64,000 bases of DNA. It comes from Escherichia coli (GTDB taxonomy: Bacteria > Pseudomonadota > Gammaproteobacteria > Enterobacterales > Enterobacteriaceae). Both the position numbers and the translations under genes were made by a program. The first letter of the stretch is position 1. The number at the start of each line of letters is the position of its first letter. Of the stretch, positions 7,433 to 43,802 are shown piece after piece. The notes under the pieces were generated by a model. The model was given only the letters and a program-made list of their open reading frames with translations, searched no databases and was not told the origin of the DNA. The DNA lies in assembly GCF_009931435.1 (NCBI RefSeq), contig NZ_CP043414.1; one strand, 5' to 3'.

Positions 7433-10400
7433 ATGAAAAAGTTACGCGTAGCCGCCTGCATGCTAATGCTGGCGCTGGCAGGGTGCGACAACGACAACAA
7501 CGATAACGCGCCAACAGCGGTGAAAAAAGATGCACCTTCTGAAGTTACTAAAGCGGCATCTTCAGAAAACGCGAGTTCAGCAAAACTCTCTGCACCGGAG
7601 CGACAAAAACTGGCACAACAGAGTGCCGGTAAGGCGCTGACATTGCTGGATCTCTCTGAAGTCCAACTCGATGGCGCAGCCACGCTGGTGCTGACCTTCT
7701 CTATCCCTCTCGACCCGGATCAGGATTTCTCGCGCGTTATTCACGTCGTTGATAAAAAAAGCGGCAAAGTGGATGGGGCCTGGGAGCTGTCAGATAATCT
7801 TAAAGAGCTGCGTTTACGCCACCTCGAGCCGAAACGTGATTTGATCGTTACTATTGGCAAGGAGGTCAAGGCACTCAACAACGCAACCTTCAGTAAAGAT
7901 TACGAAAAAACTATAACTACCCGCGATATCCAGCCCAGCGTCGGTTTTGCCAGCCGTGGTTCGCTGCTGCCTGGAAAAGTCATTGAAGGGCTGCCGGTAA
8001 TGGCGCTCAATGTTAACAATGTCGATGTTAACTTCTTCCGTGTTAAGCCAGAATCTCTGCCAGCATTTATTAGCCAATGGGAATACCGAAATTCGCTGGC
8101 GAACTGGCAGTCAGACAAACTGCTGCAAATGGCGGATCTGGTTTATACCGGACGTTTTGATCTCAATCCTGCGCGTAACACCCGTGAAAAATTATTGCTG
8201 CCGCTGGGTGATATCAAACCGCTTCAGCAGGCGGGTGTGTATCTGGCTGTGATGAATCAGGCTGGACGTTACGATTACAGTAATCCCGCGACGCTGTTTA
8301 CATTAAGTGATATCGGCGTATCGGCCCACCGTTATCACAATCGTCTGGATATCTTTACCCAAAGCCTGGAAAACGGCGCGGCCCAGCAAGGAGTTGAAGT
8401 CTCATTATTAAATGAGAAAGGGCAGACTCTGACTCAGGCAACCAGTGATGCCCAGGGGCATGTGCAGCTGGAAAATGATAAAAACGCGGCATTACTGTTG
8501 GCGCGTAAAGACGGTCAGACAACGCTACTCGATTTAAAACTTCCGGCGCTGGACTTAGCAGAATTTAACATTGCTGGCGCGCCAGGCTATAACAAACAGT
8601 TTTTCATGTTTGGCCCGCGCGATCTTTATCGCCCGGGTGAAACAGTCATCCTTAATGGTTTATTGCGTGATGCAGACGGTAAAGCGTTGCCCGATCAACC
8701 CATCAAGCTGGACGTAATTAAACCCGACGGGCAGGTACTCAGGAGCGTCGTTAGTCAGCCGGAGAATGGCCTCTATCACTTTACGTGGCCACTCGATAGT
8801 AATGCGGCCACCGGCATGTGGCATATCCGAGCCAATACGGGCGATAACCAGTATCGGATGTGGGATTTCCACGTCGAAGATTTTATGCCAGAGCGTATGG
8901 CGCTGAATCTGACCGGTGAGAAAACCCCGCTAACGCCGAAAGATGAAGTGAAATTCTCCGTGGTGGGTTACTACCTGTACGGGGCGCCTGCTAATGGTAA
9001 TACTTTGCAAGGGCAACTTTTCCTGCGCCCACTGCGTGAAGCTGTGTCAGCCTTACCTGGTTTCGAATTCGGCGATATAGCTGCTGAAAACCTTTCGCGC
9101 ACGCTGGATGAAGTTCAGTTGACGCTGGATGATAAAGGGCGCGGCGAAGTTTCTACAGAAAGCCAGTGGAAGGAAACGCATTCCCCATTACAGGTTATTT
9201 TCCAGGGCAGTTTGCTGGAGTCTGGCGGTCGCCCGGTGACGCGCCGTGCTGAGCAGGCTATCTGGCCTGCCGATGCATTGCCGGGGATCCGTCCGCAATT
9301 CGCCTCGAAATCGGTTTACGATTATCGCACTGACAGTACGGTAAAACAGCCCATTGTTGATGAAGGCAGTAACGCCGCTTTCGACATCGTTTATAGCGAT
9401 GCACAGGGCGTCAAAAAAGCTGTGTCTGGCTTACAAGTGCGCCTGATTCGCGAACGCCGCGATTACTACTGGAACTGGTCAGAAGATGAAGGCTGGCAGT
9501 CACAGTTTGATCAAAAAGATCTGATCGAAAATGAACAAACACTGGATCTTCAGGCTGATGAAACCGGTAAAGTCAGTTTCCCGGTAGAGTGGGGCGCTTA
9601 TCGTCTGGAAGTCAAAGCGCCGAATGAAGCGGTCAGTAGTGTGCGTTTCTGGGCTGGCTATAGCTGGCAGGACAATAGCGACGGTAGCGGTGCTGTGCGA
9701 CCAGACCGTGTCACGCTGAAACTGGATAAAGCCAGTTATCGCCCTGGTGATACCATTAAGTTGCACATTGCCGCACCAACGGCGGGTAAAGGCTATGCGA
9801 TGGTCGAGTCCAGTGAAGGGCCGCTGTGGTGGCAGGAGATTGATGTTCCGGCACAAGGGCTGGATCTGACGATTCCGGTCGATAAAACCTGGAATCGTCA
9901 TGATCTTTATTTAAGTACGCTGGTGGTACGTCCTGGCGATAAATCTCGCTCCGCGACGCCAAAACGCGCAGTTGGCGTGTTGCATTTGCCGCTTGGCGAT
10001 GAAAACCGTCGTCTCGATCTGGCGCTGGAAACTCCAGCGAAAATACGCCCCAATCAGCCATTAACCGTGAAAATTAAAGCCAGCAATAAAAATGGTGAGA
10101 TGCCAAAACAGGTGAATGTGCTGGTGTCTGCGGTTGATAGCGGTGTGTTGAATATTACTGATTATGTCACGCCAGATCCGTGGCAGGCATTCTTTGGTCA
10201 GAAACGCTATGGCGCAGATATTTACGATATTTACGGTCAGGTCATTGAAGGTCAGGGGCGTCTGGCAGCTCTGCGTTTTGGTGGCGATGGTGATGAACTG
10301 AAACGCGGTGGTAAACCGCCAGTAAATCACGTCAATATTGTTGCGCAACAGGCGCTACCGGTAACACTCAACGAACAGGGCGAAGGCACGGTTACATTGC

Positions 10401-12400
10401 CGATTGGTGATTTTAACGGTGAATTGCGCGTCATGGCACAAGCATGGACGGCAGATGATTTCGGTAGCAACGAAAGCAAAGTGGTTGTTGCCGCACCGGT
10501 GATAGCAGAACTGAATATGCCGCGCTTTATGGCCAGCGGTGACACCTCACGTCTGACGCTGGATATCACTAATCTTACCGATAAACCGCAAAAACTGAAC
10601 GTTGCTCTGACCGCCAGTGGCTTGCTTGAACTGGTTAGCGATTCACCCGCAGCCGTTGAATTAGCGCCGGGCGTGCGAACCACGCTGTTTATCCCGGTGC
10701 GAGCATTGCCGGGTTATGGTGATGGTGAAATTCAGGCCACTATTAGCGGGTTAGCGTTACCGGGCGAAACCGCTGCCGATCAGCATAAGCAGTGGAAAAT
10801 GGGTGTCCGTCCGGCATTTCCGGCACAAACCGTCAATTACGGTACGGCGTTGCAGCCTGGTGAGACATGGGCGATTCCAGCTGATGGATTGCAAAACTTC
10901 TCGCCTGTTACGCTGGAAGGGCAATTGTTGTTGAGCGGCAAACCACCGTTGAATATTGCACGTTATATCAAAGAGTTAAAAGCGTATCCGTACGGTTGTC
11001 TGGAGCAAACCGCCAGCGGCCTGTTCCCGTCACTTTACACCAACGCAGCCCAACTGCAGGCGTTGGGAATCAAAGGCGACAGTGATGAGAAGCGCCGTAC
11101 GGCAGTCGATATCGGCATTTCTCGTTTACTGCAAATGCAACGTGATAACGGTGGCTTTGCGCTGTGGGATAAAAACGGTGATGAAGAGTACTGGCTGACG
11201 GCTTACGTGATGGATTTTCTGGTCCGCGCAGGTGAGCAGGGTTACAGCGTGCCGACAGAAGCCATTAACCGGGGGAATGAGCGTCTACTGCGCTATTTAC
11301 AAGATCCGGGCATGATGTCGATTCCGTATGCGGATAATCTCAAAGCCAGTAAATTCGCCGTACAGTCTTACGCTGCGCTGGTGCTGGCCCGTCAGCAAAA
11401 GGCACCGCTGGGTGCGCTGCGTGAAATCTGGGAGCATCGTGCCGATGCTGCGTCTGGATTACCGCTGCTGCAACTTGGCGTTGCGCTGAAAACCATGGGC
11501 GATGCAACGCGTGGTGAAGAAGCGATTGTGCTGGCGCTGAAAACGCCGCGCAATAGTGATGAGCGGATATGGCTGGGTGATTACGGAAGTCCACTGCGCG
11601 ACAACGCATTGATGCTCTCCTTGCTGGAAGAGAACAAATTGCTACCCGATGAGCAGTACCCTCTGCTGAACACACTTTCGCAGCAGGCGTTCGGTGAACG
11701 CTGGTTATCAACTCAGGAAAGTAACGCGCTGTTCCTGGCTGCCCGTACGATTCAGGATTTACCGGGCAAATGGCAGGCGCAAACGTCTTTCTCTGCTGAG
11801 CTGCTGACAGGTGAGAAAGCGCAAACCAGCAATCTGAATAGCGATCAACTTGCCACCTTACAGGTGACCAACAGTGGCGATCAGCCGTTATGGCTGCGTG
11901 TGGATGCCAGCGGATATCCGCAATCCGCCCCTTTACCGGCGAGCAATGTGCTGCAAATCGAGCGCCATATTCTTGGCACTGACGGTAAGAGCAAATCGCT
12001 GGATTCGTTACGTAGCGGCGATCTGGTACTGGTCTGGTTGCAGGTCAAAGCCAGTAACAGCGTGCCGGATGCTTTGGTCGTTGATTTACTGCCTGCTGGC
12101 CTGGAACTGGAAAACCAGAACCTGGCTAACGGCAGCGCCAGCCTGGAGCAAAGTGGTAGCGAAGTGCAAAACCTACTCAGTCAAATGCAACAAGCGAACA
12201 TTAAGCATATTGAGTTTCGTGACGATCGCTTTGTGGCGGCGGTTGCCGTTGATGAATATCAACCAGTCACGCTGGTGTATCTGGCGCGGGCGGTAACGCC
12301 GGGAACATACAATGTTCCGCAACCAATGGTGGAATCGATGTATGTTCCCCACTGGCGGGCGACTGGCGCGGCTGAAGATCTGTTGATTGTCAGACCGTAA
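7433..12400 (+). CDS. yfhM: Alpha-2-macroglobulin family lipoprotein YfhM (ECAM)
   Basis: 1655-aa ORF; lipoprotein signal with lipobox LAGC; intact thioester motif CLEQ (YPYGCLEQTASG, ~10997-11008); stop directly abuts pbpC start. Confidence 0.9.
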   Translation: MKKLRVAACMLMLALAGCDNDNNDNAPTAVKKDAPSEVTKAASSENASSAKLSAPERQKLAQQSAGKALTLLDLSEVQLDGAATLVLTFSIPLDPDQDFSRVIHVVDKKSGKVDGAWELSDNLKELRLRHLEPKRDLIVTIGKEVKALNNATFSKDYEKTITTRDIQPSVGFASRGSLLPGKVIEGLPVMALNVNNVDVNFFRVKPESLPAFISQWEYRNSLANWQSDKLLQMADLVYTGRFDLNPARNTREKLLLPLGDIKPLQQAGVYLAVMNQAGRYDYSNPATLFTLSDIGVSAHRYHNRLDIFTQSLENGAAQQGVEVSLLNEKGQTLTQATSDAQGHVQLENDKNAALLLARKDGQTTLLDLKLPALDLAEFNIAGAPGYNKQFFMFGPRDLYRPGETVILNGLLRDADGKALPDQPIKLDVIKPDGQVLRSVVSQPENGLYHFTWPLDSNAATGMWHIRANTGDNQYRMWDFHVEDFMPERMALNLTGEKTPLTPKDEVKFSVVGYYLYGAPANGNTLQGQLFLRPLREAVSALPGFEFGDIAAENLSRTLDEVQLTLDDKGRGEVSTESQWKETHSPLQVIFQGSLLESGGRPVTRRAEQAIWPADALPGIRPQFASKSVYDYRTDSTVKQPIVDEGSNAAFDIVYSDAQGVKKAVSGLQVRLIRERRDYYWNWSEDEGWQSQFDQKDLIENEQTLDLQADETGKVSFPVEWGAYRLEVKAPNEAVSSVRFWAGYSWQDNSDGSGAVRPDRVTLKLDKASYRPGDTIKLHIAAPTAGKGYAMVESSEGPLWWQEIDVPAQGLDLTIPVDKTWNRHDLYLSTLVVRPGDKSRSATPKRAVGVLHLPLGDENRRLDLALETPAKIRPNQPLTVKIKASNKNGEMPKQVNVLVSAVDSGVLNITDYVTPDPWQAFFGQKRYGADIYDIYGQVIEGQGRLAALRFGGDGDELKRGGKPPVNHVNIVAQQALPVTLNEQGEGTVTLPIGDFNGELRVMAQAWTADDFGSNESKVVVAAPVIAELNMPRFMASGDTSRLTLDITNLTDKPQKLNVALTASGLLELVSDSPAAVELAPGVRTTLFIPVRALPGYGDGEIQATISGLALPGETAADQHKQWKMGVRPAFPAQTVNYGTALQPGETWAIPADGLQNFSPVTLEGQLLLSGKPPLNIARYIKELKAYPYGCLEQTASGLFPSLYTNAAQLQALGIKGDSDEKRRTAVDIGISRLLQMQRDNGGFALWDKNGDEEYWLTAYVMDFLVRAGEQGYSVPTEAINRGNERLLRYLQDPGMMSIPYADNLKASKFAVQSYAALVLARQQKAPLGALREIWEHRADAASGLPLLQLGVALKTMGDATRGEEAIVLALKTPRNSDERIWLGDYGSPLRDNALMLSLLEENKLLPDEQYPLLNTLSQQAFGERWLSTQESNALFLAARTIQDLPGKWQAQTSFSAELLTGEKAQTSNLNSDQLATLQVTNSGDQPLWLRVDASGYPQSAPLPASNVLQIERHILGTDGKSKSLDSLRSGDLVLVWLQVKASNSVPDALVVDLLPAGLELENQNLANGSASLEQSGSEVQNLLSQMQQANIKHIEFRDDRFVAAVAVDEYQPVTLVYLARAVTPGTYNVPQPMVESMYVPHWRATGAAEDLLIVRP

Positions 12401-27676: not shown

Positions 27677-30600
27677 ATGTCGGTATGTCTGAAACCAGGG
27701 AAAATCATTATGCTTCTGGGCATGTTGGCAGCTTTTATGCTGTCTGACTTTGCACGGGCAGGGGCGGAATGGCAGACATATCCTGATTCTACAGGCGAGT
27801 TTAACGGAACCGTTCCTTTTGCCGACAGCGCCAGCGTACCCGTCTATCAGGGCAGTGTTCAGCTTAATCCTGCTGAATCTCATGATGTCGGGTTTTCTGC
27901 TAAACCGAATGAATTTAGTGTTGACGATGACGCTGCTAACCTGATTGTTGCTAATCCTCAGGACAATGAAGGCGACCAGTTTTCCACACCACCTGCGCTG
28001 CGCTGGGAAAATCAAACACCCCCTACCGTCAGCCTGGTGTGGGCCGATGCCGCCACGCCCGATGTGCCCCTTAACCCACAACCCATTGCTAACCGTAGCT
28101 TTTGCGCTCAGGGGCTCGCCGGACGCTCGCTGGTGGCCTGGCCGCAGATTGATGCGCAGCAAACCCTCCCACTGCTCTACCTGCTGACCTCGACCGGGTA
28201 TCCCTATGCGGGGACGGTGGCGCTGGTGGACCAGAAAGTGACCCTGAACATCGCGCCCGCGCAGGGCGATTTAATCTCGGTGAGCGCCAGCGGTTATAAC
28301 GAAACGATCGCGGCGGCAAAAACCACCGTTGGCGACACCATCACGCTCACCGTCACCACTAAAGATTGTCAGGGCAACGTCGCGGGTAATATTCCGTTTA
28401 TTATCAAACGTAAAGATGCTGAAAATCGCCAGGGGGCAGTGAATAATAGTGCGCCAGTGGTACTGGATAGCACCGAGTTAACGACGACGGCTACCGAATA
28501 CCATGGCACCTCTGATTCCAACGGCACGGCCACCATCACGGTGAGCCAACCGAACGGCCCTGGTGTCAAAACGCCACTGGTGGTCAGCATTTCCGGCATT
28601 GCGCAAACCAGCGAAACCGCAGTGATTTTTACCGTACTCACCAGCCCGGACGTGGCGCAGGCTACGATGTGGGGCCATATGGCGGAGACGGTAGAAGCCC
28701 ACGGTTACACCTTCAGTCGACCAAAGCTGGCGGCAGAAGTCAGCAATGAAAGCGCCACGGTTGTCGATCATAACGAAACCTGGTCCACCTTCACCTGGAG
28801 CGGCGCAGATAGCCACTGCACCGTGCTGCCCGGCATGCGCCACTTCGGCGCGCTGGCGACCGTTATCCCCACGTCGGTGCAGACAGCCCTTGGCTGGCCG
28901 ATGCAGGGGGATTATTACTGGTCATCGCTGGCGGGCACCACCGGGCAGCACCATGCGGCGGATGTCTCTAACCGTAGTGAAACGCAAAAGCCGGATAGCA
29001 CCCCGTTTCTTGTGAGCTGCGTGGATAAACCCGCGCCTGATGTCGAACCGAAAATCGTCCTTACGCCCGAAAACTATGATGATACGGCACAGGCGATGAA
29101 ATCGCAGGTGGGCGAAGACGCCACGATGCGTCTGACGATCACCGACAATAAAAATAACGATCAACCACTGGCGTATTACTACTTCTCGCTGCATCTGGAT
29201 GACGGCGTTAACCGCAAAAATCAAACCGATTCCGCCTGGGAAGCCCATCCGGTGCAGATTACTGGTGGTTCGAATTTACAACAGGTTGATGCTCACACCT
29301 ATGAAGGCATGACCGATGTCAACGGTCAGGCTTCGCTAACCCTGAGTCAGCCCGACGGCGCAGGCGTGAAAACCCATATCACGGCGAAAATGCGCAGCAA
29401 TTTTACGGCTACAGATGCCAAAGACGTGATTTTTACTGTGATCACCAGCCCGGACAGCGACAAGGCGCGGATGTGGGGCCATATGCGCGGCATTGTTGTA
29501 TCTGGCAGTCTGTTCAAACGCCCAGTGCTGGCGGATGAAACTGAGCATGAACTGGGATCGGTGCGGGAAAATGACGAAGACTGGGCGCTGTTCGATCAAG
29601 ACACCAGTATGCAGGCTGAATGCGGCGTCGGCCATACGCCACGTCAGAGTGGGCTGGAAAGCCTGTTTTCAGCCCATCCCGGTAACGCGATTGGCACTGA
29701 GTATGGCTGGCCCACCGCCCAACAGAGCTACTTAAGCGCGGTGGAGCAAGCCACGCATTCATCGGTGAATCTGGGGAACGGAAACGTCGACAGCTACTCC
29801 GGCTTTAAGCAGAATTACCTCTCCTGTTCGGGCAATGAGATGGTAGCGAAGGTTGAAGTCAGCACCGATCACGATATCACCCCTGGCAGCAAAGCGCAGG
29901 CCAAAGTAGGTGACACCATCGTGATGACCGTGCGTACGATTAACGCGCTCAATAATACCCCGGTACCCTTTACTGCATTCACCATTACCAAAGGCATGGG
30001 GTATAACCGAGCGGGGCTGGTGAGCGGGTTTGATGACCCGAGCAGCGGCGCAATCTCGATGAATGGCACGCAATACGGCACATCACAGCCGTCGATGGTC
30101 TACACAGGTACGACAGATGCACAAGGCGTGGCAACGGTCGAAATAGAGCAACCCCAGGGGGTGGGGTTAAGAACCGTGCTGAGCATTACGCCGGTCAATT
30201 CCCATCTACCAAATGCCATTAATTACAATGTTATTTTTACCACCCCAACCAGCCCGGATGTTAGTGGGGCGCAGATGTGGGGCCATATGGATGAAACGAT
30301 TACCGTTGATTCATTAACCTTTACCCGGCCTAAGCTGGCAGCAGAAATCGCCAGTCCGGATGGCACACTAACGGAAAAAAACGAAGTCTGGGCGCGCGTT
30401 AGCCAGGCCAGTACGGCCATTACCAGTAAAGGCGGTTGCGGAACCAATATGCTGCCGCGCCGCTCCCAGCTCAGTGCGCTTTATGACGCTAATAACGGTA
30501 ATGCGGTGCAAGCCACACACGGCTGGCCGACGCAGCGTCAGCCCTACTGGAGCAGTTCCCCCGCGGATTTAACGCCGCACAATTACACCATTGCCCTGGA

Positions 30601-33600
30601 TAACGGCGCACAGGCCATCGGCGGCGATACGCCGGTTTACGTCAGTTGCCTGACGACGGCGAACAAACCTGCCAGCAGCATTACGCTGGATGTGGTTGAT
30701 AACGCACAGTGGGCTGCCGGAAATAACGCGGCGAAGCTGAAAAAAGGCGAAACGCTACGGGTTAAGGTAACGGTAAAAGATGCGCAGGGTAATCCGCTCA
30801 CGGATATGCCATTTAAACTGAGTCGCGGAGACGGTTATACCCGCACGGGCGAAAAACATATTGCCGGTAGTGGCGATGCGCTGGTGGCACCGGTGGTGAT
30901 TAACAGTGGGCTGGCGGATGAAACGACGTTGAACGACACCGCGGGATTTTATACTGCCATGACCGGTAGCGACGGCAGCAAAATCCTCAATATTACCCGC
31001 CCGGATACTCACGGCACCAAAACGGCGCTGACGGCGACGTTGTATTCCGATCCAACAAAAAAAGACAGCCTGGATACAATCTTTACTGTGGTCACCAGCC
31101 CGGATAGTAGCAAAGCGAAAATGTGGGGGCATATGCCGGAAACGGTGACGGCTGCGGACGGTACGGTATTTAAACGCCCGCTGTTGTTGAAGGAACTGGC
31201 CTATCAGACTGGGCGAACATCGACGTCTGAAGACAATGAAAACTGGGCGTTGTTTAACATTAATTATGCGAGTTCTTCCACGACGTATAGTGGCTGTGGA
31301 ACCAACTATATTCCGACTCAAGCCGGTCTGACGTCACTGTTTGCTAATAATGCGGGCAACACCATGAAAACCGTGCAGGGCTGGCCGGTGGCAACACGCT
31401 ATTTGTCCAACACGTCCGACAACGGCAGCATGGAGCAGCGTAACTACAAGGCGGTAGATCTCAGCAATGGCACGAGTGCGGCAGTGTCATCAACGGCGCT
31501 GCAACTGCTGACCTGCCAGACCACGCCGGTAACCACGGTGGGCCAAATTCTGCTGGAAGCGGCAGATCCGGCGACGCTGGATACCACCTATAACGTGGTA
31601 AAAGCGAAAAAAGGCGAAGAATCCGTGGTGCGCGTCACCACCAAAGATACGCAAGGCAACCTGGTGGGCAATACGGCATTTATCCTGACGCGTGCCAACA
31701 GCGTGAGTCGGGCTAACGCATCAGCAACCGCGAGCGTGGGCGCGCTGACGGTGACGGATGCTTGGGGAAATACGCGAAATAATTTCCAGTCGACGAGTGA
31801 AACGATTTACGGCGTGACTGGTGCAGACGGGTCAACGACATTTACCCTGAAACAGGATAACAGTACCGGGTTAAGAACCGATCTCACGGCAAAACTGGAT
31901 ACGTCCAGCAGCGTCAAGGCGACGCTACCGGTGGTCTTTACTGTCGTGACCAGCCCGGATTCGCCAAAAGCGAATTTTTGGGGACATATGGCCGAAACGG
32001 TGATGGCCTCCGACGGTACAATCTATAAACGACCACTGTTGTTGAAAGAGCTGAGTAACACCAGTGGTCGAAATTCTACGGCTGAAAACGGTGAAGATTG
32101 GGCAAGATTCACCTGGACTCAGTCGGCTGACACCAGCATGAATGGGTGTGGTACAGATTATATGCCGACGCTGGATGGACTGAAGTCTTTGTATGACGCC
32201 AATAGCGGTAATGTGATGAGTACGGTGCAGGGATGGCCGGTAAAAACGACCTATCTCACCAATACCCCGAGTGATACGCAAACAGGGAGCCGTTACTACA
32301 ATGTGGTGCAACTGAATACTGGTGCAGTCTCACAAATCTCGACGAACACAGTCGTGCAACAAACCTGCCGCACAACGCCGTTGACGGCTGCTAGCCAGAT
32401 TACGCTGGAGGCCTCAGACCCCTCGCAATTTGTCAGCATTGACAGTACGCTTAGCGCGATCAAAGTGCAGAAAGGCGATAGCGTGTCGATCCGCATTTCG
32501 ACTAAAGATGCACAGGGGAATTTAGTCGGCAATACGCCGTTTGCCCTGAAACACGCTAACCCGGTCAATCGCCAAAATGTGGCGTCAACATCGCAGAAAG
32601 TGTCGGTCACGACTGCGTCGGGTACGACGGTGGATACCACTGCATCGACCATTCTGTATGGCGTGACCGGGCCAGACGGAACCACCACGATGACACTCCG
32701 ACAGGATGTGTCTACTGGACTCAAAACCGACTTTTATGCTCTGTTGAACGATACCGGCGTGTCGTCGAACACCTTGCCAGTGATCTTCACCGTCGTCACC
32801 AGCCCGGATACACCGCTGGCGGCCAACTGGGGGCATATGGCGGAAACCTTTACCAGCAGCAAGGGCGTCACCTTCAAACGGCCTTTCCTCAAAGCTGAAC
32901 TTTCTGGTGGTACGGCGGTAACGACCAATAATGAAGTCTGGTCGCGCCTGACAGCAACGGAGAAAACGGATGCCAGCAAGGCTGGGTGTGATGAGAGTTA
33001 TCAACCGCTGATGACTGACATGCAGGGGTTGTATGCGGATTACCCTAACAACCAGTTGGGCACGGTGCTCGGCTTGCCGACTTCCGCCGGGTATATGTGG
33101 GCCTACGACATGATGACGGTTTCTGGCAGCAGCTGGAGCAACCAGGCATATTCGCTCGTTAATGGTCAGACAGTTCAGGCATCGTCCAGTTATACGGCGG
33201 TAGTGATGTGCCTGGTGGAACCGCATACCGTTCCGGCGATGATAGAGATCACTTCAACAGCACAGGATGCGGCAAAAACGGTCAGCAATGGTGGTCGACC
33301 GAGCGCCGTAGCGAAGAAAGGTGAGACGATTCCGCTGACGGTGACCGTACGTGATAGCACCGGGAATCCGGTACCCTACGCCGACTTTACCCTCACGCGT
33401 GGAACGACGCTGGATCGCTCGAAAGCAACCGTTAACTCGAGTGCGGACGATCTTACCGTGAAGTCATTGATACCCGCGAACAGCGACGCTGGGCTGACGG
33501 CAAATGGGGCAAAAGTGCTCAGAACAACGGGCAGTGATGGCACAGCCACCTTTGAAGTGAGCCAGAATGCCACGACAGGTCTGGCGACACCGATAACCGT

Positions 33601-35761
33601 CACGCTGGCGCGCGATACAACCAAAACCGCCACGCTGGATGTTATCTACACGGTGATAACCAGCCCGGACTCACCGAGCGCGAAATTCTGGGGATACATG
33701 CCGGACACCTTTACCAGTTCGGCAGGCGTCACCTTCAGACGACCGCTCCTGAAAGCCGAAGCGACTTCAGGGTCATCGATTAGCACTAACGGCAATGGTG
33801 AAGTGTGGTCGTATATGAGCAACGTTCAAAATTTAACATCGACAGATTGTCCGCTGGAGAATCAACCGCGCAGTAATGAATTGTTGGATTTGTATAATGA
33901 TCATCCCAACGGCGCGATAATGACTGACCTGGGGCTGCCGATATATGCAGGCAAGTGGTGGGCTTATGATATGGTCATGCCGGATTTATATACGTGGCAG
34001 TATCAGACTGTCAGCCTGAGCGCAGGAGATATCGCGAAGAGCTCGGCAAACAACGCGCTGATGCTTTGCCTGGCGAAGCCGCATCCGGCAGGCGTCAGCG
34101 TAATGTTGACGTCATCCGCAATGGATAACGCCAGAACCCTCAGTAATGGCGGGCGACCCAGCGCGTCAGTGAAAAAAGGTAACCCACTGCCAATTGTGGT
34201 GACGGTCAAAGATCGTGATGGCAACCCGCTGGCGGGAGAGGCCGTTACGCTCAGGCGTGGTTCAGCGATGAGCCGTTCAGGAGCAGGAGTGGGCACGCCG
34301 GCAAATGCAATGACGTTGACAGAGTTGACACCTGTGTCGGCGGAGTTTTCTCTGGCCGCACACGATACGCAATGGCAAGGTTTCACCGGCAGTGATGGTA
34401 CGGCCACTTTCAATGTTGAACAGCCTGAGACCATCGGCCTGGCCATTCCGTTCACCGCTATACTGGCGCGAGATGTCGCAACTACCAGCGTCCTTGATAC
34501 GATCTTTACCGTCGTCACCAGCCCGGATTCCGCAATGGCGACCTACTGGGGCCATATGCCGGATACGGTAACGGCGGAAAACGGCGTGGTCTTTGAACGG
34601 CCTAAATTGTTGAAAGAGCTGCCGTCGAGCGCCGGAGTCAGTCAGGTGACGGATAACAATGAAGTGTGGCCGTTGTTTAAGGCAACGCAAAGGGAAGATA
34701 GCAGCCTCAGTCCTTGTGAAGCGGCACGTCGGCCATTGAGCGATGATTTATTATCGCTCTACGCGCGCTATCCGGGGAACACGCTGACGACTCAAATCGG
34801 CTGGTCTACGAAGTATGCATGGTGGGCACTGGATAACAAGCAGGGGAATGCCCTGGTTGTCAGTCTGAATAATGGTTTTGAGTCGTCGACGGCGAGTACG
34901 GGGTATCAGGGATGTCTGGTCAATCCCCGCGCGACCGTCTCCAGCGTCACGCTGACATCGACGGTGATAGATGCCACTACGCAGGCGGCGAAGGTAAAAA
35001 AAGGTGAAGCCGCGCCCGTCGTTGTTACCGTAAAAGACAGCGCCGGGAAGCCGGTACCGAATGTCGCTTTCACCTTAAAACGTGGTGATGCCGTGCCGCG
35101 TAACAGCGGGGCGACGTTGTATGGTGATGTTGCGGCGATGGATGATATGACGGTACAACCTGCCAGCGGGACGGTGGTAACGCTGGCTGACAGTGGGAAT
35201 ACGATCGACGGTGTGACAGGGGCGGACGGTACGGCAAGTTTTGCCGTTCGTCAGGATAATACGCCAGGATATAAAACGCCGTTGACGGTGACGCTGACGG
35301 ATAACGCCACAATAACGGCGACGCTGGATACGATTTTCACCGTGCCGACCAGCCCGAATGTCGCCACGGCGTATTTCTGGGGGCATATGGCGGATACCGC
35401 CACCGTAAGTGGCAAGACGTTACATCGCCCGCTATTGCAATCAGAGTTGCCGTCAGGGGCTACAGCGGCAGTAGCGCCAACGGTGAATAATGAAATCTGG
35501 GCGCTGGCACATGTGATCGATGCTCAAAAATGGGATATTGCAAAGCAGTGCGGTGACTTTAGTAGAGCACCGAGCTATACCGATTTACAGTCGTTACATA
35601 GCAGCTTTAGCGCGCTGGGATGGCCATCATCGATAAGCTTCCCCTATTTCTCTACCGATCGGGCCGGTTCGTTCTATTGTGGCATGGATGAAGGGGCGGG
35701 GACACAAAACTGCGGTATTCAGGCATCCAGTACTGCGGGGTTTGCAACCTGTTTCCAGTAG
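27677..35761 (+). CDS. ratA: Giant RatA/RatB-like repetitive surface or secreted protein (Big_1-type Ig-like domains)
   Basis: 2694-aa uninterrupted ORF; N-terminal signal ([17 protein letters not shown]); nine tandem repeats each with a Big_1-like strand (e.g. [13 protein letters not shown]), a TSPD motif and a WGHM motif; last gene of island, convergent with xseA. Confidence 0.65.
28640..35400 (+). repeat. Nine tandem, divergent coding repeats (period 804-861 nt) inside the ratA-like gene
   Basis: The tgg-ggN-cat/tac-atg (WGHM/WGYM) motif recurs at 28670, 29474, 30278, 31124, 31979, 32828, 33689, 34547, 35378; each is preceded by accagcccgga (TSPD). Confidence 0.85.
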
Positions 35762-38880: not shown

Positions 38881-40458
38881 ATGACGGAAAACATTCATAA
38901 GCATCGCATCCTCATTCTGGACTTCGGTTCTCAGTACACCCAACTGGTTGCGCGCCGCGTGCGTGAACTGGGTGTTTACTGCGAACTGTGGGCGTGGGAT
39001 GTGACAGAAGCACAAATTCGTGACTTCAATCCAAGCGGCATTATTCTTTCCGGCGGCCCGGAAAGCACCACCGAAGAAAACAGCCCGCGTGCGCCGCAGT
39101 ATGTCTTTGAAGCAGGCGTACCGGTATTCGGCGTTTGCTATGGTATGCAGACCATGGCAATGCAGTTGGGTGGTCATGTTGAAGCCTCTAACGAACGTGA
39201 ATTTGGCTATGCGCAGGTTGAAGTCGTAAACGACAGCGCACTGGTTCGCGGTATCGAAGATGCTCTGACAGCAGACGGTAAACCTCTGCTCGATGTCTGG
39301 ATGAGCCACGGCGATAAAGTTACCGCTATCCCGTCCGACTTCATCACCGTAGCCAGCACCGAAAGCTGCCCGTTCGCCATCATGGCAAATGAAGAAAAAC
39401 GCTTCTATGGCGTACAGTTCCACCCGGAAGTGACTCATACCCGCCAGGGGATGCGCATGCTGGAGCGTTTTGTGCGTGATATCTGCCAGTGTGAAGCCCT
39501 GTGGACGCCAGCGAAAATTATCGACGATGCAGTAGCCCGTATCCGCGAGCAGGTAGGCGACGATAAAGTGATCCTCGGCCTCTCTGGTGGCGTGGATTCC
39601 TCCGTGACTGCAATGCTGCTGCACCGCGCAATCGGCAAAAACCTGACTTGCGTATTCGTTGACAACGGCCTGCTGCGTCTCAACGAAGCAGAGCAGGTTC
39701 TGGATATGTTTGGCGATCACTTTGGTCTGAACATTGTTCACGTTCCGGCAGAAGATCGCTTCTTGTCAGCGCTGGCTGGTGAAAACGATCCGGAAGCAAA
39801 ACGTAAAATCATCGGTCGCGTTTTCGTTGAAGTATTCGATGAAGAAGCGCTGAAACTGGAAGATGTGAAGTGGCTGGCGCAGGGTACTATCTACCCTGAT
39901 GTTATCGAATCTGCCGCGTCTGCAACCGGTAAAGCTCACGTCATCAAATCTCACCACAACGTGGGCGGCCTGCCGAAAGAGATGAAGATGGGCCTGGTTG
40001 AACCGCTGAAAGAGCTGTTCAAAGACGAAGTGCGTAAAATTGGTCTGGAGCTGGGCCTGCCGTACGACATGCTGTACCGTCACCCGTTCCCGGGACCAGG
40101 GCTTGGCGTTCGTGTGCTGGGCGAAGTGAAGAAAGAGTACTGCGACCTGCTGCGCCGTGCTGATGCCATCTTCATTGAAGAACTGCGTAAAGCGGACCTG
40201 TACGACAAAGTTAGCCAGGCGTTTACCGTGTTCCTGCCGGTACGTTCTGTTGGCGTAATGGGCGATGGTCGTAAATACGACTGGGTTGTGTCTCTGCGTG
40301 CCGTCGAAACCATCGACTTTATGACCGCACACTGGGCACATCTGCCGTACGATTTCCTTGGTCGCGTTTCCAACCGCATTATCAATGAAGTGAACGGTAT
40401 TTCCCGCGTGGTGTATGACATCAGCGGCAAGCCGCCAGCGACTATTGAGTGGGAGTAG
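38881..40458 (+). CDS. guaA: GMP synthase (glutamine-hydrolysing)
   Basis: 525-aa ORF; GATase motif GVCYGMQ; PP-loop SGGVDSSV; C-terminal ...PPATIEWE. Confidence 0.97.
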
Positions 40459-40503
40459 GACTGGCTATAAATAGTAAATTAAGCCTTTCCAACTAACTTT
40501 AAT

Positions 40504-40536
40504 GCCAGTCAGTTTGCTGACTGGCATTTTTTATTG
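40504..40536 (+). terminator. guaA rho-independent terminator (gccagtcagtttgctgactggc then attttttatt)
   Basis: Perfect hairpin plus T-tract 45 nt after guaA stop. Confidence 0.7.
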
Positions 40537-40604
40537 GTTTTTCATTGAGTTTATGACTTCTATTTTTAAGGCCGTAACTCTATAACATCGGCTATGGCCT
40601 AAAG

Positions 40605-40632
40605 ATAAAAGCCATTACCAACAAAATGGCGG
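40605..40632 (-). terminator. Probable minus-strand terminator downstream of the membrane receiver-like gene
   Basis: Minus-strand reading gccattttgttggtaatggc followed by ttttatcttt; lies about 120 nt downstream of the ORF ending at 40753. Confidence 0.45.
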
Positions 40633-40752
40633 TATTCCAAAACAGTCTAGCCGGAAGTGCTTACAATGAGATCGATCAAATCGACAAATGAGATACTGGC
40701 CGTTGTGAGCGCCCGGCAACCGTAGCCGTAGGGGGCGAATTTAATGGCTTTG

Positions 40753-41529
40753 TTATGAGCCATTGGTAATCGCACCCATGACAATTTGAAAGAGTTCTTC
40801 TGCTCGATTAGTGGAGCCAATTGCACCTCTTTCTCTCGCCATTCTCTTGTGCTCTGGTAGATCTGAGGACGCATAGATCATAAAAGGAGTTTTGTCTCCC
40901 ATTGCGCGTAATCTTTCTAGTAAGACATAACCTTCTTGCGCCCCTTCTTTGCGATCCATATCCGAAATAATAGCTGCAAACTTATTTGTTTTTAACAATT
41001 CCAAGGCTTCGTCAGTTGAAAGAGCTAAAGCGAACTCTATTCCCTGTGCCTCAAATGCCTGTCTTTCGTAAACATTATTTTCTGGTCGATCATCCACCCA
41101 TAAAATACGATTTCGCCATTTTTCATGCTTACTCTGCCGTTTTGCATTGGATACAACGTTGACGATTTTTTGCAGTTGGCTTTCAGTGACCCCTGCACTA
41201 TTTTCAGGCTGTTTTGCTGTGGCGGCGGTCAATGATGCTGCTGTAGCTATTTGCGCTCTTAAAAAATTATTTTCATCTTTGAAATCTGACGGCCCGTAAA
41301 GCTTATTATGATGTTTCGCAACAAGCCAGAGAAAGCCAAGAAACACAATGACAGGAAAGAAAACCATGAAATAAATAAGGGGAGCTATATGCTCTGATAA
41401 GCCATTACCAAAGCCAACGACGAAAGAGGCAAATCCATAAACGAGAACAATAAAGAGTGCAATGATACCAAGAGGGCTTTTGGTAAATCCTATTGCAGTT
41501 TCAGCAAATTTCTCTGGTTCCATATCCAT
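40753..41529 (-). CDS. Hypothetical membrane protein: two N-terminal TM helices plus a C-terminal CheY-like receiver-like domain (accessory gene, not in K-12 layout)
   Basis: 258-aa ORF; TM segments GIIALFIVLVYGFASFVVGF and IAPLIYFMVFFPVIVFLGFLWLV; C-terminal REC-like pattern ILWVDDRPENN / AAIISDMDR / TPFMIYASSD / GAIGSTNRAEEL with N/R where the conserved REC Lys is expected; AT-rich codon usage. Confidence 0.7.
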   Translation of the reverse strand: MDMEPEKFAETAIGFTKSPLGIIALFIVLVYGFASFVVGFGNGLSEHIAPLIYFMVFFPVIVFLGFLWLVAKHHNKLYGPSDFKDENNFLRAQIATAASLTAATAKQPENSAGVTESQLQKIVNVVSNAKRQSKHEKWRNRILWVDDRPENNVYERQAFEAQGIEFALALSTDEALELLKTNKFAAIISDMDRKEGAQEGYVLLERLRAMGDKTPFMIYASSDLPEHKRMARERGAIGSTNRAEELFQIVMGAITNGS

Positions 41530-41616
41530 CCTCAGTATTGCTCATAACACAGTTAAGTTGTATTAGATCAGACCTGATCTGACAATTACCGGCTATTTAT
41601 AAAGGTATCTGTCAGA

Positions 41617-42012
41617 TTACATCTGGCTTAAGTTTTTCTCATCCCAGATGTGCTTTCCATCAAGTAACGTTTCCATCGGCGTTCGGCCACTGCACATTTT
41701 TCCCTGATGGGTTCGCTCATTATTATAGTGAACCCGCCATTCATCAAGAACCGATTGTAATGCTTCAAGATCATCATATAACTTTTTGCGGAACGTCACC
41801 TGATAAAACTCGTTCAGTATCGTTTTATGGAACTGCTCGCAGATACTATTGGTCTTAGATGACATTGCTTTCGTTTTCGTATGCTCAATATCATTTATCG
41901 CCAGATAAAGCTGGTAATCATGCTGCTCCACTTTACCGCAATCTCTTGGTGTATTGAGAGGCGGGTTATAAAATAAATACTGATACCATGAGGGCGGATC
42001 AATCGTGGTCAT
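41617..42012 (-). pseudogene. Truncated DDE (rve-type) transposase, C-terminal fragment only: IS remnant
   Basis: 131-aa ORF with integrase-core C-terminal signatures NSICEQFHKTILNEF and WRVHYNNERTHQG...GRTP; upstream DD catalytic region and DNA-binding N-terminus are absent. Confidence 0.6.
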
Positions 42013-42027
42013 AGTATCAGGTCATTC

Positions 42028-43542
42028 TCATGGGTTTATTGCGTCCCTGAAGATGACGTCGCTGACCATCTCTCCTCCAAGAAAATCGATCAACATATTC
42101 GAGTTTTCAAGGTCTTCTCTGGTCAATGCCCCGATTGCTTGTCCAACTACTACCTCCCAAGGTTTTTTACACTCAACAATAGCACAGACGAGTTGGCGGA
42201 TTTTCTTGATCTTCTTGTGACGCAATCGGTCGTTCGATTCCATTAGTTCTGCAATCAACGCTATGTCGGAGTGTGTTTGATTATCCTCAACCCATTTTTT
42301 GGCTGCGTCTACAAATTCCACCCATGTAACATTCATTACTGCAAGGCATGAATCAGTCAAAAGAACATTTTCGATAGCGTAGCATCGTAAGCGATAGCGT
42401 TTAAGAGGTAGGCGATGTTCAAGCGACTTGTTGATTACACCATCGCCATCACGAAGGGAAAAGGCGATTGGATTGTCATAGAGTGTACTAAGGAGGTCTA
42501 CGCAAAAATCCTCAAGTTGACTCTGTTGATCTACGCTACCTGCTAGTACGGGAAAGATTTTTATTCGACCCTGTGATGTTCTGGCCGCTTGTTGCCAGAC
42601 TCGTTCGTCGTCCTCTCCTTCCAAAATTAATGCAGCGTCTTCGCTAAGAGAAAGCGATAGGGGGTGCCCGAAGAATGGTGCAATCTTTCGAAGTTCATCG
42701 CTGGCCGGTATCAATGAGATTTCATTTACTGCAAAGCTCTTCGTGCCGATTGATACATATGGGGAGGCGGCAAGAGAACAGACGAGCGGGGAACTATGGG
42801 TGGATAAGCATATGGCAATACTGTTCGCGTGTGTTCTAAATTCGTCGAGCATACTGATTATCAGCTTGCCCAGTCTAGCTTGGAGGTCGGGGTGCAGATG
42901 TACATCAGGCTCATCGAGGAGGAGTACGTTGAATTTCTCCGGATCTATTGTGTCGAAGAAATAGATGATTTCCGCGGCTAATGCAACCGCTTCCGATTCA
43001 CCGCTACTGATTTGGGCCGGATCAATAATCTGACCATCTACAAGTGATCGAAACTCATAATCGACATTACCCATCTCGAGCGAAATGTTAGTGAGAAGCT
43101 GATTAATTTTACTTAATCGGTCTGTCTGAAAGTTTCGCGTTAGATCAGTTCGAATTTCCGGAGTATTGGCAAGTCGACGTAAGTAAAGCGTCTCGGCCTC
43201 GCGAAATAGCATAGCCGATGCAGCTTTGAAGTTGCTTGCCTGATTAACTGCCCGAGTGTGCCTCAGCCATTCGGGGTTGTCGCTCATATTTGTGAGGACG
43301 GTGCCATCACGCTTGAACGATCCTGCTCGCTCTGGACTTACATACCGGACATAAAATTGCTGCTTGTTCTGGCTGATTGTTTGTTCGATATCGCGAAGGA
43401 AACGACTTTTTCCCGCACCGTTTCGGCCCATAATTATGTTGATGTTGTTTAAGCCGTAAAGTCGGCCAATTTGGCTAGATAACTCGCTTACTTTCAAGAT
43501 TGTAACTCCATTTCTTGTTGCCACATACGGTAACAAATACAC
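42028..43542 (-). CDS. OLD-family-like ATPase-nuclease (ABC-type ATPase fused to TOPRIM-like domain); accessory gene
   Basis: 504-aa ORF with GTG start at 43542; Walker A GRNGAGKS (43405-43428), ABC-signature-like ISSGES, Walker B/D-loop VLLLDEPDVHLHP, H-loop STHS; C-terminal TOPRIM-like LILEGEDDE (~42610-42630) and RDGDG (~42440-42454). Confidence 0.75.
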   Translation of the reverse strand: MYLLPYVATRNGVTILKVSELSSQIGRLYGLNNINIIMGRNGAGKSRFLRDIEQTISQNKQQFYVRYVSPERAGSFKRDGTVLTNMSDNPEWLRHTRAVNQASNFKAASAMLFREAETLYLRRLANTPEIRTDLTRNFQTDRLSKINQLLTNISLEMGNVDYEFRSLVDGQIIDPAQISSGESEAVALAAEIIYFFDTIDPEKFNVLLLDEPDVHLHPDLQARLGKLIISMLDEFRTHANSIAICLSTHSSPLVCSLAASPYVSIGTKSFAVNEISLIPASDELRKIAPFFGHPLSLSLSEDAALILEGEDDERVWQQAARTSQGRIKIFPVLAGSVDQQSQLEDFCVDLLSTLYDNPIAFSLRDGDGVINKSLEHRLPLKRYRLRCYAIENVLLTDSCLAVMNVTWVEFVDAAKKWVEDNQTHSDIALIAELMESNDRLRHKKIKKIRQLVCAIVECKKPWEVVVGQAIGALTREDLENSNMLIDFLGGEMVSDVIFRDAINP

Positions 43543-43573
43543 TAACTGAATAGGTGCGTTGATGCCTCATTTT

Positions 43574-43606
43574 GTTCACATCTATGTTGAAATTAGTGAT
43601 GTGAAC
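43574..43606. promoter_or_regulatory. 9-bp perfect inverted repeat (gttcacatc N15 gatgtgaac) upstream of the ATPase gene: candidate operator
   Basis: Read directly: gttcacatc at 43574-43582 and gatgtgaac at 43598-43606, 32-64 nt upstream of the GTG start at 43542. Confidence 0.35.
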
Positions 43607-43802
43607 GAGCTAAGGACTCTATTAGGAGTAGAGCGGCCATATTGTTCGTCTGAACAGCCTGTAGACAGCTCTATTATTGAGACATGGTATTTTTCGTGGT
43701 ATCTGCTAAGTAGTTTGTTTCAAGGCATTGATTTATTTATATTTTATTTTCTCATTGATAGCTGAGTGGGAATGATTTGATCCCTGCACTATGAATTAGC
43801 AA

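Follow-up and report, generated by a model that had tools for sequence, protein, structure and literature searches.

The window analysed here is a 64,000-nucleotide stretch of Escherichia coli contig NZ_CP043414.1 (assembly GCF_009931435.1), and the subject of this analysis is a single gene within it, at 40753..41529 on the minus strand, that encodes a two-transmembrane-helix (2TM) protein ending in a CheY-fold pseudo-receiver domain. The window is E. coli chromosome with the gene order RatA-like adhesin, xseA, guaB, guaA, and then yfgI-yfgH-yfgG-pdeF. A foreign islet of 3.3 kb (40446..43771) is inserted between guaA and yfgI, and its GC content is 41-46% compared to about 53% in the flanks. 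A 9-bp direct repeat, TGAGTGGGA, marks the two ends of the islet, at 40446-40454, inside the last guaA codons, and at 43763-43771. The empty site in NCTC10537 has a single copy of TGAGTGGGA. In STEC309 the guaA site is occupied by another islet, one that encodes a tyrosine integrase, and this identifies the 3' end of guaA as an integration hotspot. The window islet appears to be an integrase-less remnant at this hotspot. It contains three minus-strand genes: the receiver gene, a transposase fragment of the insertion sequence (IS) family IS481, and an ABC-type ATPase. No histidine kinase or Hpt gene is present in the islet, in agreement with an earlier reading of the locus made from its letters (the sequence-only reading).

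The open reading frame (ORF) named by that reading is real. The mechanical ORF encodes 258 amino acids from an upstream ATG at 41529, and residue numbers throughout refer to this form. The likely coding sequence is 40753..41523 (minus strand), which encodes 256 amino acids from a second ATG at 41523. This start is favored because it is preceded by a GAGGA ribosome-binding site (41533-41529) at a spacing of 5 nt, is the choice of the Prokaryotic Genome Annotation Pipeline (PGAP; WP_000433086, 'response regulator'), and gives the 256-residue length found in almost all homologs. Some 120 nt past the stop codon lies a terminator-like hairpin followed by a T-run (40611..40630, minus strand). The hairpin is a pattern match from a consensus scan and the probable end of the transcript. 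A promoter scan of the gene gave fewer matches than shuffled sequence.

The C-terminal half of the protein is a genuine receiver domain, far past chance. The domain covers residues 136-258 (40756..41124, minus strand) and was defined by Pfam, alignments to Protein Data Bank (PDB) profiles, AlphaFold2 (AF2) modeling with Foldseek, and residue counts. Pfam Response_reg (PF00072) matches residues 142-237 with an E value of 2.9e-7, and the family profile matches the 6ont receiver (1.1e-7) and the RcsC receiver (7.5e-7) in the PDB. The receiver part of the AF2 model has a predicted local distance difference test score (pLDDT) of about 90 and a (beta-alpha)5 topology. All 50 of the PDB matches listed by Foldseek are receiver domains, with target TM-scores up to 0.85. 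The sequence-only reading had proposed a fold check that would separate receiver, TIR, and SLOG domains, and the answer is receiver. TIR and SLOG folds are ruled out: neither occurs among the 50 listed matches, and Pfam gives no TIR match. An NCBIfam scan of the protein gave weak generic receiver matches only, far below their cut-offs, and a weak Pfam match to cREC_REC (0.009) falls behind the match to the generic receiver model.

Hidden Markov model alignments to PDB profiles located the catalytic positions. The motif ILWVDD is the beta1 acidic pair, D146/D147, and IISDM holds D190 at the phospho-acceptor position. Both had been correctly recognized from the sequence, the latter within AAIISDMDR. 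The assignment of TPFMIYASSD as the beta4 Ser/Thr was mistaken. The canonical Thr/Ser position at the end of beta4 is Ala220, and the nearby serines are at T+1 and T+2. Arg242 occupies the position of the conserved Lys at the end of beta5, as the claim of a replaced Lys requires. Residue frequencies were counted in 129 representatives sharing no more than 50% identity, 68 with the TM+receiver architecture and 61 with the receiver only. The acidic triad (DD + D) is present in 100% of the TM+receiver and 95-100% of the receiver-only representatives. Lys is found at its canonical position in 0/129; the residue there is D, N, R, or S, often followed by Pro as in canonical receivers. The Thr position varies among A, T, and S across the family, with T or S in 41 of the 68 TM+receiver proteins. 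Arg193 (D+3) and Gly200 (D+10) are conserved in 68/68 TM+receiver and 60/61 receiver-only representatives. Both residues lie in the beta3-alpha3 loop, SDMxRxEGxxEGY, which is two residues longer than in canonical receivers. We infer from these patterns that the metal and phosphate pocket is probably kept and that its basic residue has been relocated.

By the definition of Bourret et al. (2025, PMC12632262), a pseudo-receiver is recognizable as a receiver although one or more of its five catalytic residues are missing. The window protein is a pseudo-receiver under this definition because both Thr and Lys are absent, and the description of it as a degenerate CheY-like receiver is upheld. Canonical CheY-like receivers (PF00072) share the (beta-alpha)5 fold, the acidic pair, and the position of the acceptor Asp with the window family, but the family lacks the Lys and has an invariant Arg in its longer beta3-alpha3 loop, and the window protein has Ala in place of Thr. 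In contrast to canonical response regulators, the window protein also lacks the K-3 aromatic residue, a kinase, and a DNA-binding or enzymatic output, and its receiver is C-terminal. The family differs from other pseudo-receivers as well. Most of these (~80%) lose DD2 (PMC12632262), whereas the window family strictly keeps all three acidic residues, which suggests that metal or phosphate binding is retained.

The N-terminal part of the protein is a conserved 2TM module, residues 3-92 (41254..41523, minus strand), delimited by near-invariant alignment columns, AF2 helices, and hhalign. A Kyte-Doolittle scan finds two hydrophobic segments and AF2 places helices at residues 19-40 and 45-78, consistent with the two hydrophobic N-terminal helices described in the sequence-only reading. 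The module begins with an amphipathic N terminus containing K-S-P-L-G, followed by TM1 (residues ~20-40), a short loop, TM2 (residues ~49-71), and the juxtamembrane motif KHHNKLYGPSDFKxExNF. No Pfam family covers it. A helical linker, residues 93-135 (41125..41253, minus strand), connects the two domains. Its pattern is 'AxASLxAAxAKQP...QLxxIV', and it is the most variable part of the protein with a higher nonsynonymous substitution rate (dN). One metagenomic protein (P0140, 366 amino acids) has about 110 extra residues after the 2TM-receiver core, which form two tandem repeats that look YegP/DUF1508-like by eye.

The 2TM module is shared with a sibling family. At least 351 solitary proteins of ~255-307 amino acids have the same 2TM/YGPSDF module and no Pfam family. 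Alignment of the window and sibling families by hhalign gave a probability of 99.96 and an E value of 3.5e-39 across residues 3-92. The sibling family spans Firmicutes, Bacteroidota, and Proteobacteria, with examples at L031 9983-10891 and L032 8192-9085 that encode 2TM + nuclease-fold proteins. It also occurs in Rhizobium phage RHEph21, a T7-like phage (Autographiviridae), as the gene at L042 3468-4385 (phrog_26238), and phrog_26238 matches the 2TM module at 1.5e-7. The sibling C-terminal domain was not named by sequence-only searches, and Pfam finds no Mrr_cat in it. The AF2 model of this domain has a pLDDT of 83, and Foldseek matches it to the PD-(D/E)xK nuclease domains of Cdn1, Card1, Can2, R2 endonuclease, AF1548, and McrC. 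The domain keeps a D...E-x-K motif and looks like a catalytically intact PD-(D/E)xK nuclease. These data identify an unannotated membrane module common to two solitary families, one of which is found in a phage.

The window family is large, uniform, and under constraint. A 90%-clustered collection contains 1957 homolog matches. Among the 120 matches listed, nearly all are 252-263 amino acids long and 67-99% identical, and their hosts are Enterobacterales, Vibrio, Pseudoalteromonas, Pseudomonas, Nitrosomonas, and Acidithiobacillus. A scan of genomes extends this range to Chlorobium, Bacteroidota (Ancylomarina, Psychroserpens, Winogradskyella, and Kaistella), and Kiritimatiellae. Homologs are thus found in at least five phyla, mostly in Proteobacteria and Bacteroidota. 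Conservation in the family alignment is full-length and the TM region is almost invariant. The dN values are 0.07-0.36, the synonymous rate (dS) is saturated, and the ratio of the two, where calculable, is 0.08-0.09. By the dN measure, constraint acts on the TM part as well as on the receiver, and less on the linker. The strong purifying selection and the more than 1900 full-length homologs of uniform length show that the gene is not decaying. Homologous nucleotide similarity between loci ends at the coding sequence, and in the loci compared the gene is accompanied by no small ORF, RNA, or conserved stretch of flanking nucleotides. The gene is essentially absent from the phage and plasmid collections; the sole full-length 'plasmid' match is a 4.9-Mb record of chromosome size.

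Genomic neighbourhoods were surveyed in about 35 loci from different genera, as the sequence-only reading had proposed, and the ORFs of 32 loci were compared all against all. No kinase recurs beside the homologs in the ~35 loci. The 32-locus comparison found no neighbour family that recurs across genera beyond common chance neighbours such as guaA, LysR regulators, and response regulators. Across all ~35 loci the gene stands alone, which favors the stand-alone option among those raised by the sequence-only reading. Carriage is rare and accessory, and 27 of 5426 complete E. coli genomes have the gene and its islet.

The contexts of the homologs are diverse. The guaA islet holds the gene in E. 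coli, Klebsiella, and Rosenbergiella. In Rosenbergiella nectarea (L028, ~7661-10911), the guaA-adjacent receiver gene has 90% nucleotide identity that includes the flank towards guaA, and it is apparently broken after about residue 46 by a ~2.3 kb insertion. The Vibrio cyclitrophicus homolog is an integron cassette: an attC-like repeat occurs at its stop codon and at five other cassette ends, compared to 0.13 expected. The folding energy of attC did not differ significantly from that of shuffled sequences, so that the cassette call depends on the recurrence and placement of the motif. The Vibrio array is bordered by an integron integrase (L005), and the neighbouring cassettes encode ParE/Phd, GNAT/TacA, and HEPN proteins. 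Cassette status applies to the Vibrio cyclitrophicus homolog only, and the window copy resides in the guaA att-site islet. At a distance of ~6 kb from the receiver gene, the same Vibrio array also contains a PARIS-like pair of genes, AAA_15/AAA_21 + DUF4435 (L006 1-2149), a separate cassette that is absent from the arrays of sister strains. In Dickeya and Pectobacterium, the gene adjoins satellite-type elements with AlpA and a DUF927 primase and lies beside RelB/ParE toxin-antitoxin pairs; these regions are described as satellite-type, and identity with the psu-int hotspot (Rousset et al., PMC9122126) is not claimed. The Pseudoalteromonas gene is located between two group II introns with a KAP NTPase nearby, and Agarilytica has an apparent cassette-like array context. 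Lone insertions amid housekeeping genes were found in Dickeya, Buttiauxella, and one metagenomic bacterium. Taken together, the gene is intact, strongly conserved, horizontally mobile, and single.

An exhaustive search of representatives showed that the receiver module, along with the helix that precedes it, recurs in large proteins with 44-64% identity. E values are 1e-32 to 1e-40 for P0202, P0214, P0218, P0224, P0236, P0247, P0266, and the Rhizobium vWA protein described below. The module is found in caspase proteins with or without an FGE-sulfatase (P0202, P0266), in proteins with a KGGVGR ParA-like ATPase combined with either TPR or a TIR-like region (P0214, P0236), in nSTAND1 proteins (P0247, P0210), in AAA/STAND giants (P0218, P0237), in a protein that appears FtsZ-like from sequence motifs judged by eye (P0224), and in a TIR-like effector (P0197; PADLOC 'Effector TIR', 5e-8). 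The conserved linker helix travels with it, and 'AVASLT.A.AK' stands before the receiver in P0247, P0197, and P0210. Rhizobium phaseoli plasmid pRphaN671d (L043) has a complete operon encoding a trypsin-like peptidase, a hypothetical protein, a MoxR ATPase, and a SAV_2336-type vWA protein (VMAP system), and this 1509-residue vWA protein contains the receiver module at 44% identity. The module also occurs on other anchors, in proteins of ~230 amino acids with one TM helix and the receiver. The receiver in the caspase and TIR fusions looks regulatory because these proteins already have a dedicated effector.

These architectures belong to a described class. Kaur et al. (2020/2021) identified them as kinase-independent receivers of conflict systems that are possibly nucleotide-responsive switches (PMC7159879, PMC8195603). 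The receivers of the VMAP/MoxR-vWA ternary, iSTAND2, and TERNS3 systems belong to the same receiver sub-clade as the window family, and a histidine kinase is absent from both. The systems of Kaur et al. are multi-gene NTPase systems, whereas the window gene stands alone with its receiver on a dedicated 2TM module, and the 2TM+receiver architecture is absent from the descriptions in these two papers.

A conflict or defence role is plausible from the genomic context and the domain swapping. The reading that we favor, at a probability of roughly 40%, is that the window gene encodes a stand-alone conflict protein in which the pseudo-receiver would be the switch and the 2TM hairpin the membrane-acting output. 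The idea of a stand-alone conflict protein is drawn from a lone gene that is both mobile and constrained, from its two portable modules, from a receiver clade that is wired to cell-suicide effectors elsewhere, and from carriage in integron and satellite-type settings. The assignment of switch and output is drawn from analogy with Cam1 and PycTM. The defence role, the signal, the sensor/output assignment, and the effect on the membrane are all inferred. The protein would be a self-sufficient inner-membrane protein, made of a 2TM module of 90 amino acids and a CheY-fold pseudo-receiver in the cytoplasm, that needs no histidine kinase and acts as a one-protein phage-defence or abortive-infection system or in a related competition function. 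The acidic pocket (D146, D147, and D190, predicted to bind Mg2+) and the Arg193 loop might respond to a phosphoryl donor, to a ligand that is a nucleotide or bears phosphate, or to a bound invader protein. Sensing would alter the self-association of the receiver, and this change could be relayed through the helical linker to the 2TM hairpins. At the inner membrane, the hairpins would then open a pore, cause depolarisation, or engage a conserved membrane target.

A bolder form of this idea is doubtful. In it, the 2TM/YGPSDF module would be a portable membrane module of immunity not described before, serving as sensor or as pore. The receiver without Lys, with its acidic triad and invariant Arg at D+3, would be a new kinase-independent class of switch that directly reads a phage protein or a metabolite induced by phage, such as a small phosphodonor or a nucleotide. 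The two together would form a complete one-protein immune system, and the same switch would gate caspase, TIR, and STAND effectors in other bacteria.

Cam1 (TM+CARF), PycTM, the CBASS 2TM effectors, and TM-STING have an N-terminal TM part followed by a Rossmann-like cytosolic sensor and are thought to kill by depolarising the membrane. They depend on a partner encoded nearby that produces the signal, either a cyclase or a CRISPR complex. The window protein has the same layout, but its gene has no partner and its sensor would be a receiver fold. Epona, an integron-cassette defence system of Vibrio cholerae in which a 2TM 'holin' is joined to Mrr_cat (bioRxiv 10.1101/2024.07.02.601686), resembles the sibling family (2TM + PD-(D/E)xK) by description, and the integron-cassette lifestyle is shared. 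Literature searches on the accession, on TM+receiver defence systems, on integron defence, and on domain-centric discovery found no paper on the family and no experimental report of defence, toxicity, or phosphorylation for any member. In DefensePredictor, the supplements of which were covered in part, the entries named 'response regulator receiver domain' are different proteins, 543-615 amino acids long, and the window protein is not among them. PADLOC matched the window protein to 0 families at E<=1. Two relatives, P0140 and P0266, weakly match the PADLOC profile of PD-T4-6 (PDLC04055, profile positions 320-416; 4e-4 and 1.5e-3) through the linker and the start of the receiver. PD-T4-6 is a single-gene E. 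coli defence protein, and the window protein gave no match to it.

Several observations weigh against the favored stand-alone switch-and-output reading. The very high sequence conservation is unlike that of many fast-evolving immune sensors. About one third of the contexts are plain housekeeping regions, such as rnt-grxD in Buttiauxella, Amj-GntR, and sulfatase-LysR in Dickeya. The AF2 confidence is low in the TM part (pLDDT 40-65). Two further observations fit a reversed polarity, in which the 2TM part would be an anchor or a sensor of membrane perturbation or DNA entry, or would dock to a conserved membrane machine, and the C-terminal domain would be the output. In the sibling family, the same TM module is joined to a seemingly intact nuclease, and Kaur et al. 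list kinase-independent receivers as 'potential effectors' of the vWA ternary systems (PMC7159879). The output of the window protein would then come from a domain of receiver origin that has turned catalytic or sequestering, such as a phosphatase or phosphate sink acting on small phosphodonors or phosphoproteins, or a nucleotide-processing domain like the predicted cREC. The acidic triad and the invariant Arg193 could form a catalytic phosphate site, and the weak cREC_REC match points the same way. However, this match is weaker than the generic one, no enzymatic receiver has been demonstrated to date, and the receivers that sit beside a caspase or TIR effector look regulatory. Reversed polarity is a possible but on the whole unlikely arrangement. 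It is more unlikely still that the protein is a membrane-tethered orphan, either a response regulator or a phosphate sink, that serves the host two-component or acetyl-phosphate network and tunes the envelope outside of any conflict. The PGAP name 'response regulator' agrees with such a role, the fully conserved DD + D makes phosphorylation chemistry conceivable, some loci are ordinary housekeeping contexts, and orphan atypical regulators are common (PMC12632262). Against it are the family-wide absence of Lys and the absence of Thr in the window protein, the rare carriage in E. coli, the integron arrays and satellite-type surroundings, and the fusion of the same receiver clade to caspase, TIR, and STAND proteins. 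Lone transfer among at least five phyla also makes a specific partner kinase implausible.

The sequence-only reading had suggested two other roles for the protein, as the effector arm of the adjacent ATPase or as a decayed component of a phosphorelay system such as Detocs, and neither held up. The ATPase gene (42028..43542, minus strand) encodes an ABC-type AAA_15/AAA_21 protein by PADLOC and Pfam, 504 amino acids long by ORF and 489 by PGAP. The two genes are on the same strand less than 500 bp apart, and the pair is also found in Klebsiella, which is compatible with a two-gene islet system. However, the ATPase homologs found by tblastn across the loci are restricted to the islet of E. coli and Klebsiella, with none in the ~35 other loci. 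An IS3 element interrupts the ATPase gene in Klebsiella, whereas the receiver gene there is intact and 99% identical. The two genes of the window are separated by the IS481-family fragment (41617..42012, minus strand), a pseudogene that is context only. It matches NCBIfam transpos_IS481 (9.3e-23) over the C-terminal part only and is annotated by PGAP as 'incomplete, missing N-terminus'. The ATPase matches the PADLOC models PDC-M01A (1e-17), AriA (3e-15), and AriAB (2.7e-14), and also PtuA and GajA, and its C-terminal half has a weak DUF4435/Toprim-like region. By these matches it looks like a self-contained PARIS/OLD-type protein that fits fused AriAB/PARIS-type models with a Toprim-like part of its own, and it may be a single-gene PARIS/OLD-like defence protein. 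The pairing of the two genes into one system is close to refuted. The case for a decayed or orphaned Detocs component is weaker yet and can be regarded as highly improbable. Some DtcC proteins have TM effectors, and the union of a receiver with a membrane part in defence is a functional analogy for an effector driven by a phospho-switch (bioRxiv 10.1101/2023.01.24.525353). Detocs requires dtcA (kinase) and dtcB, and both are absent from the window and from every locus compared. In DtcC a canonical receiver comes first and the effector is C-terminal, an order reversed in the window protein, and there is no sequence match and no PADLOC model at the threshold given above. Purifying selection and the uniform length of the homologs also contradict decay.

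Receiver domains are among the commonest bacterial signaling modules and are assumed to be kinase-dependent. The clade described here has no catalytic Lys, keeps its pocket under strong selection, moves alone between phyla, and is wired to caspase, TIR, and STAND proteins. Finding its trigger would give an entry point to the kinase-independent receivers of conflict systems, hitherto predicted by comparative genomics only, and the window gene is easily tested as a small, single gene in E. coli. If the favored defence role is true, the protein would be a compact sensor-effector design, and this role would explain why integron arrays and the surroundings of satellite-type elements carry it repeatedly.

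One further gene of the window was examined in the course of this work. The RatA-like adhesin upstream of xseA (27677-35761, plus strand) is a repetitive protein of 2694 amino acids that matches NCBIfam NF011844 with 5410 bits, above the cut-off.

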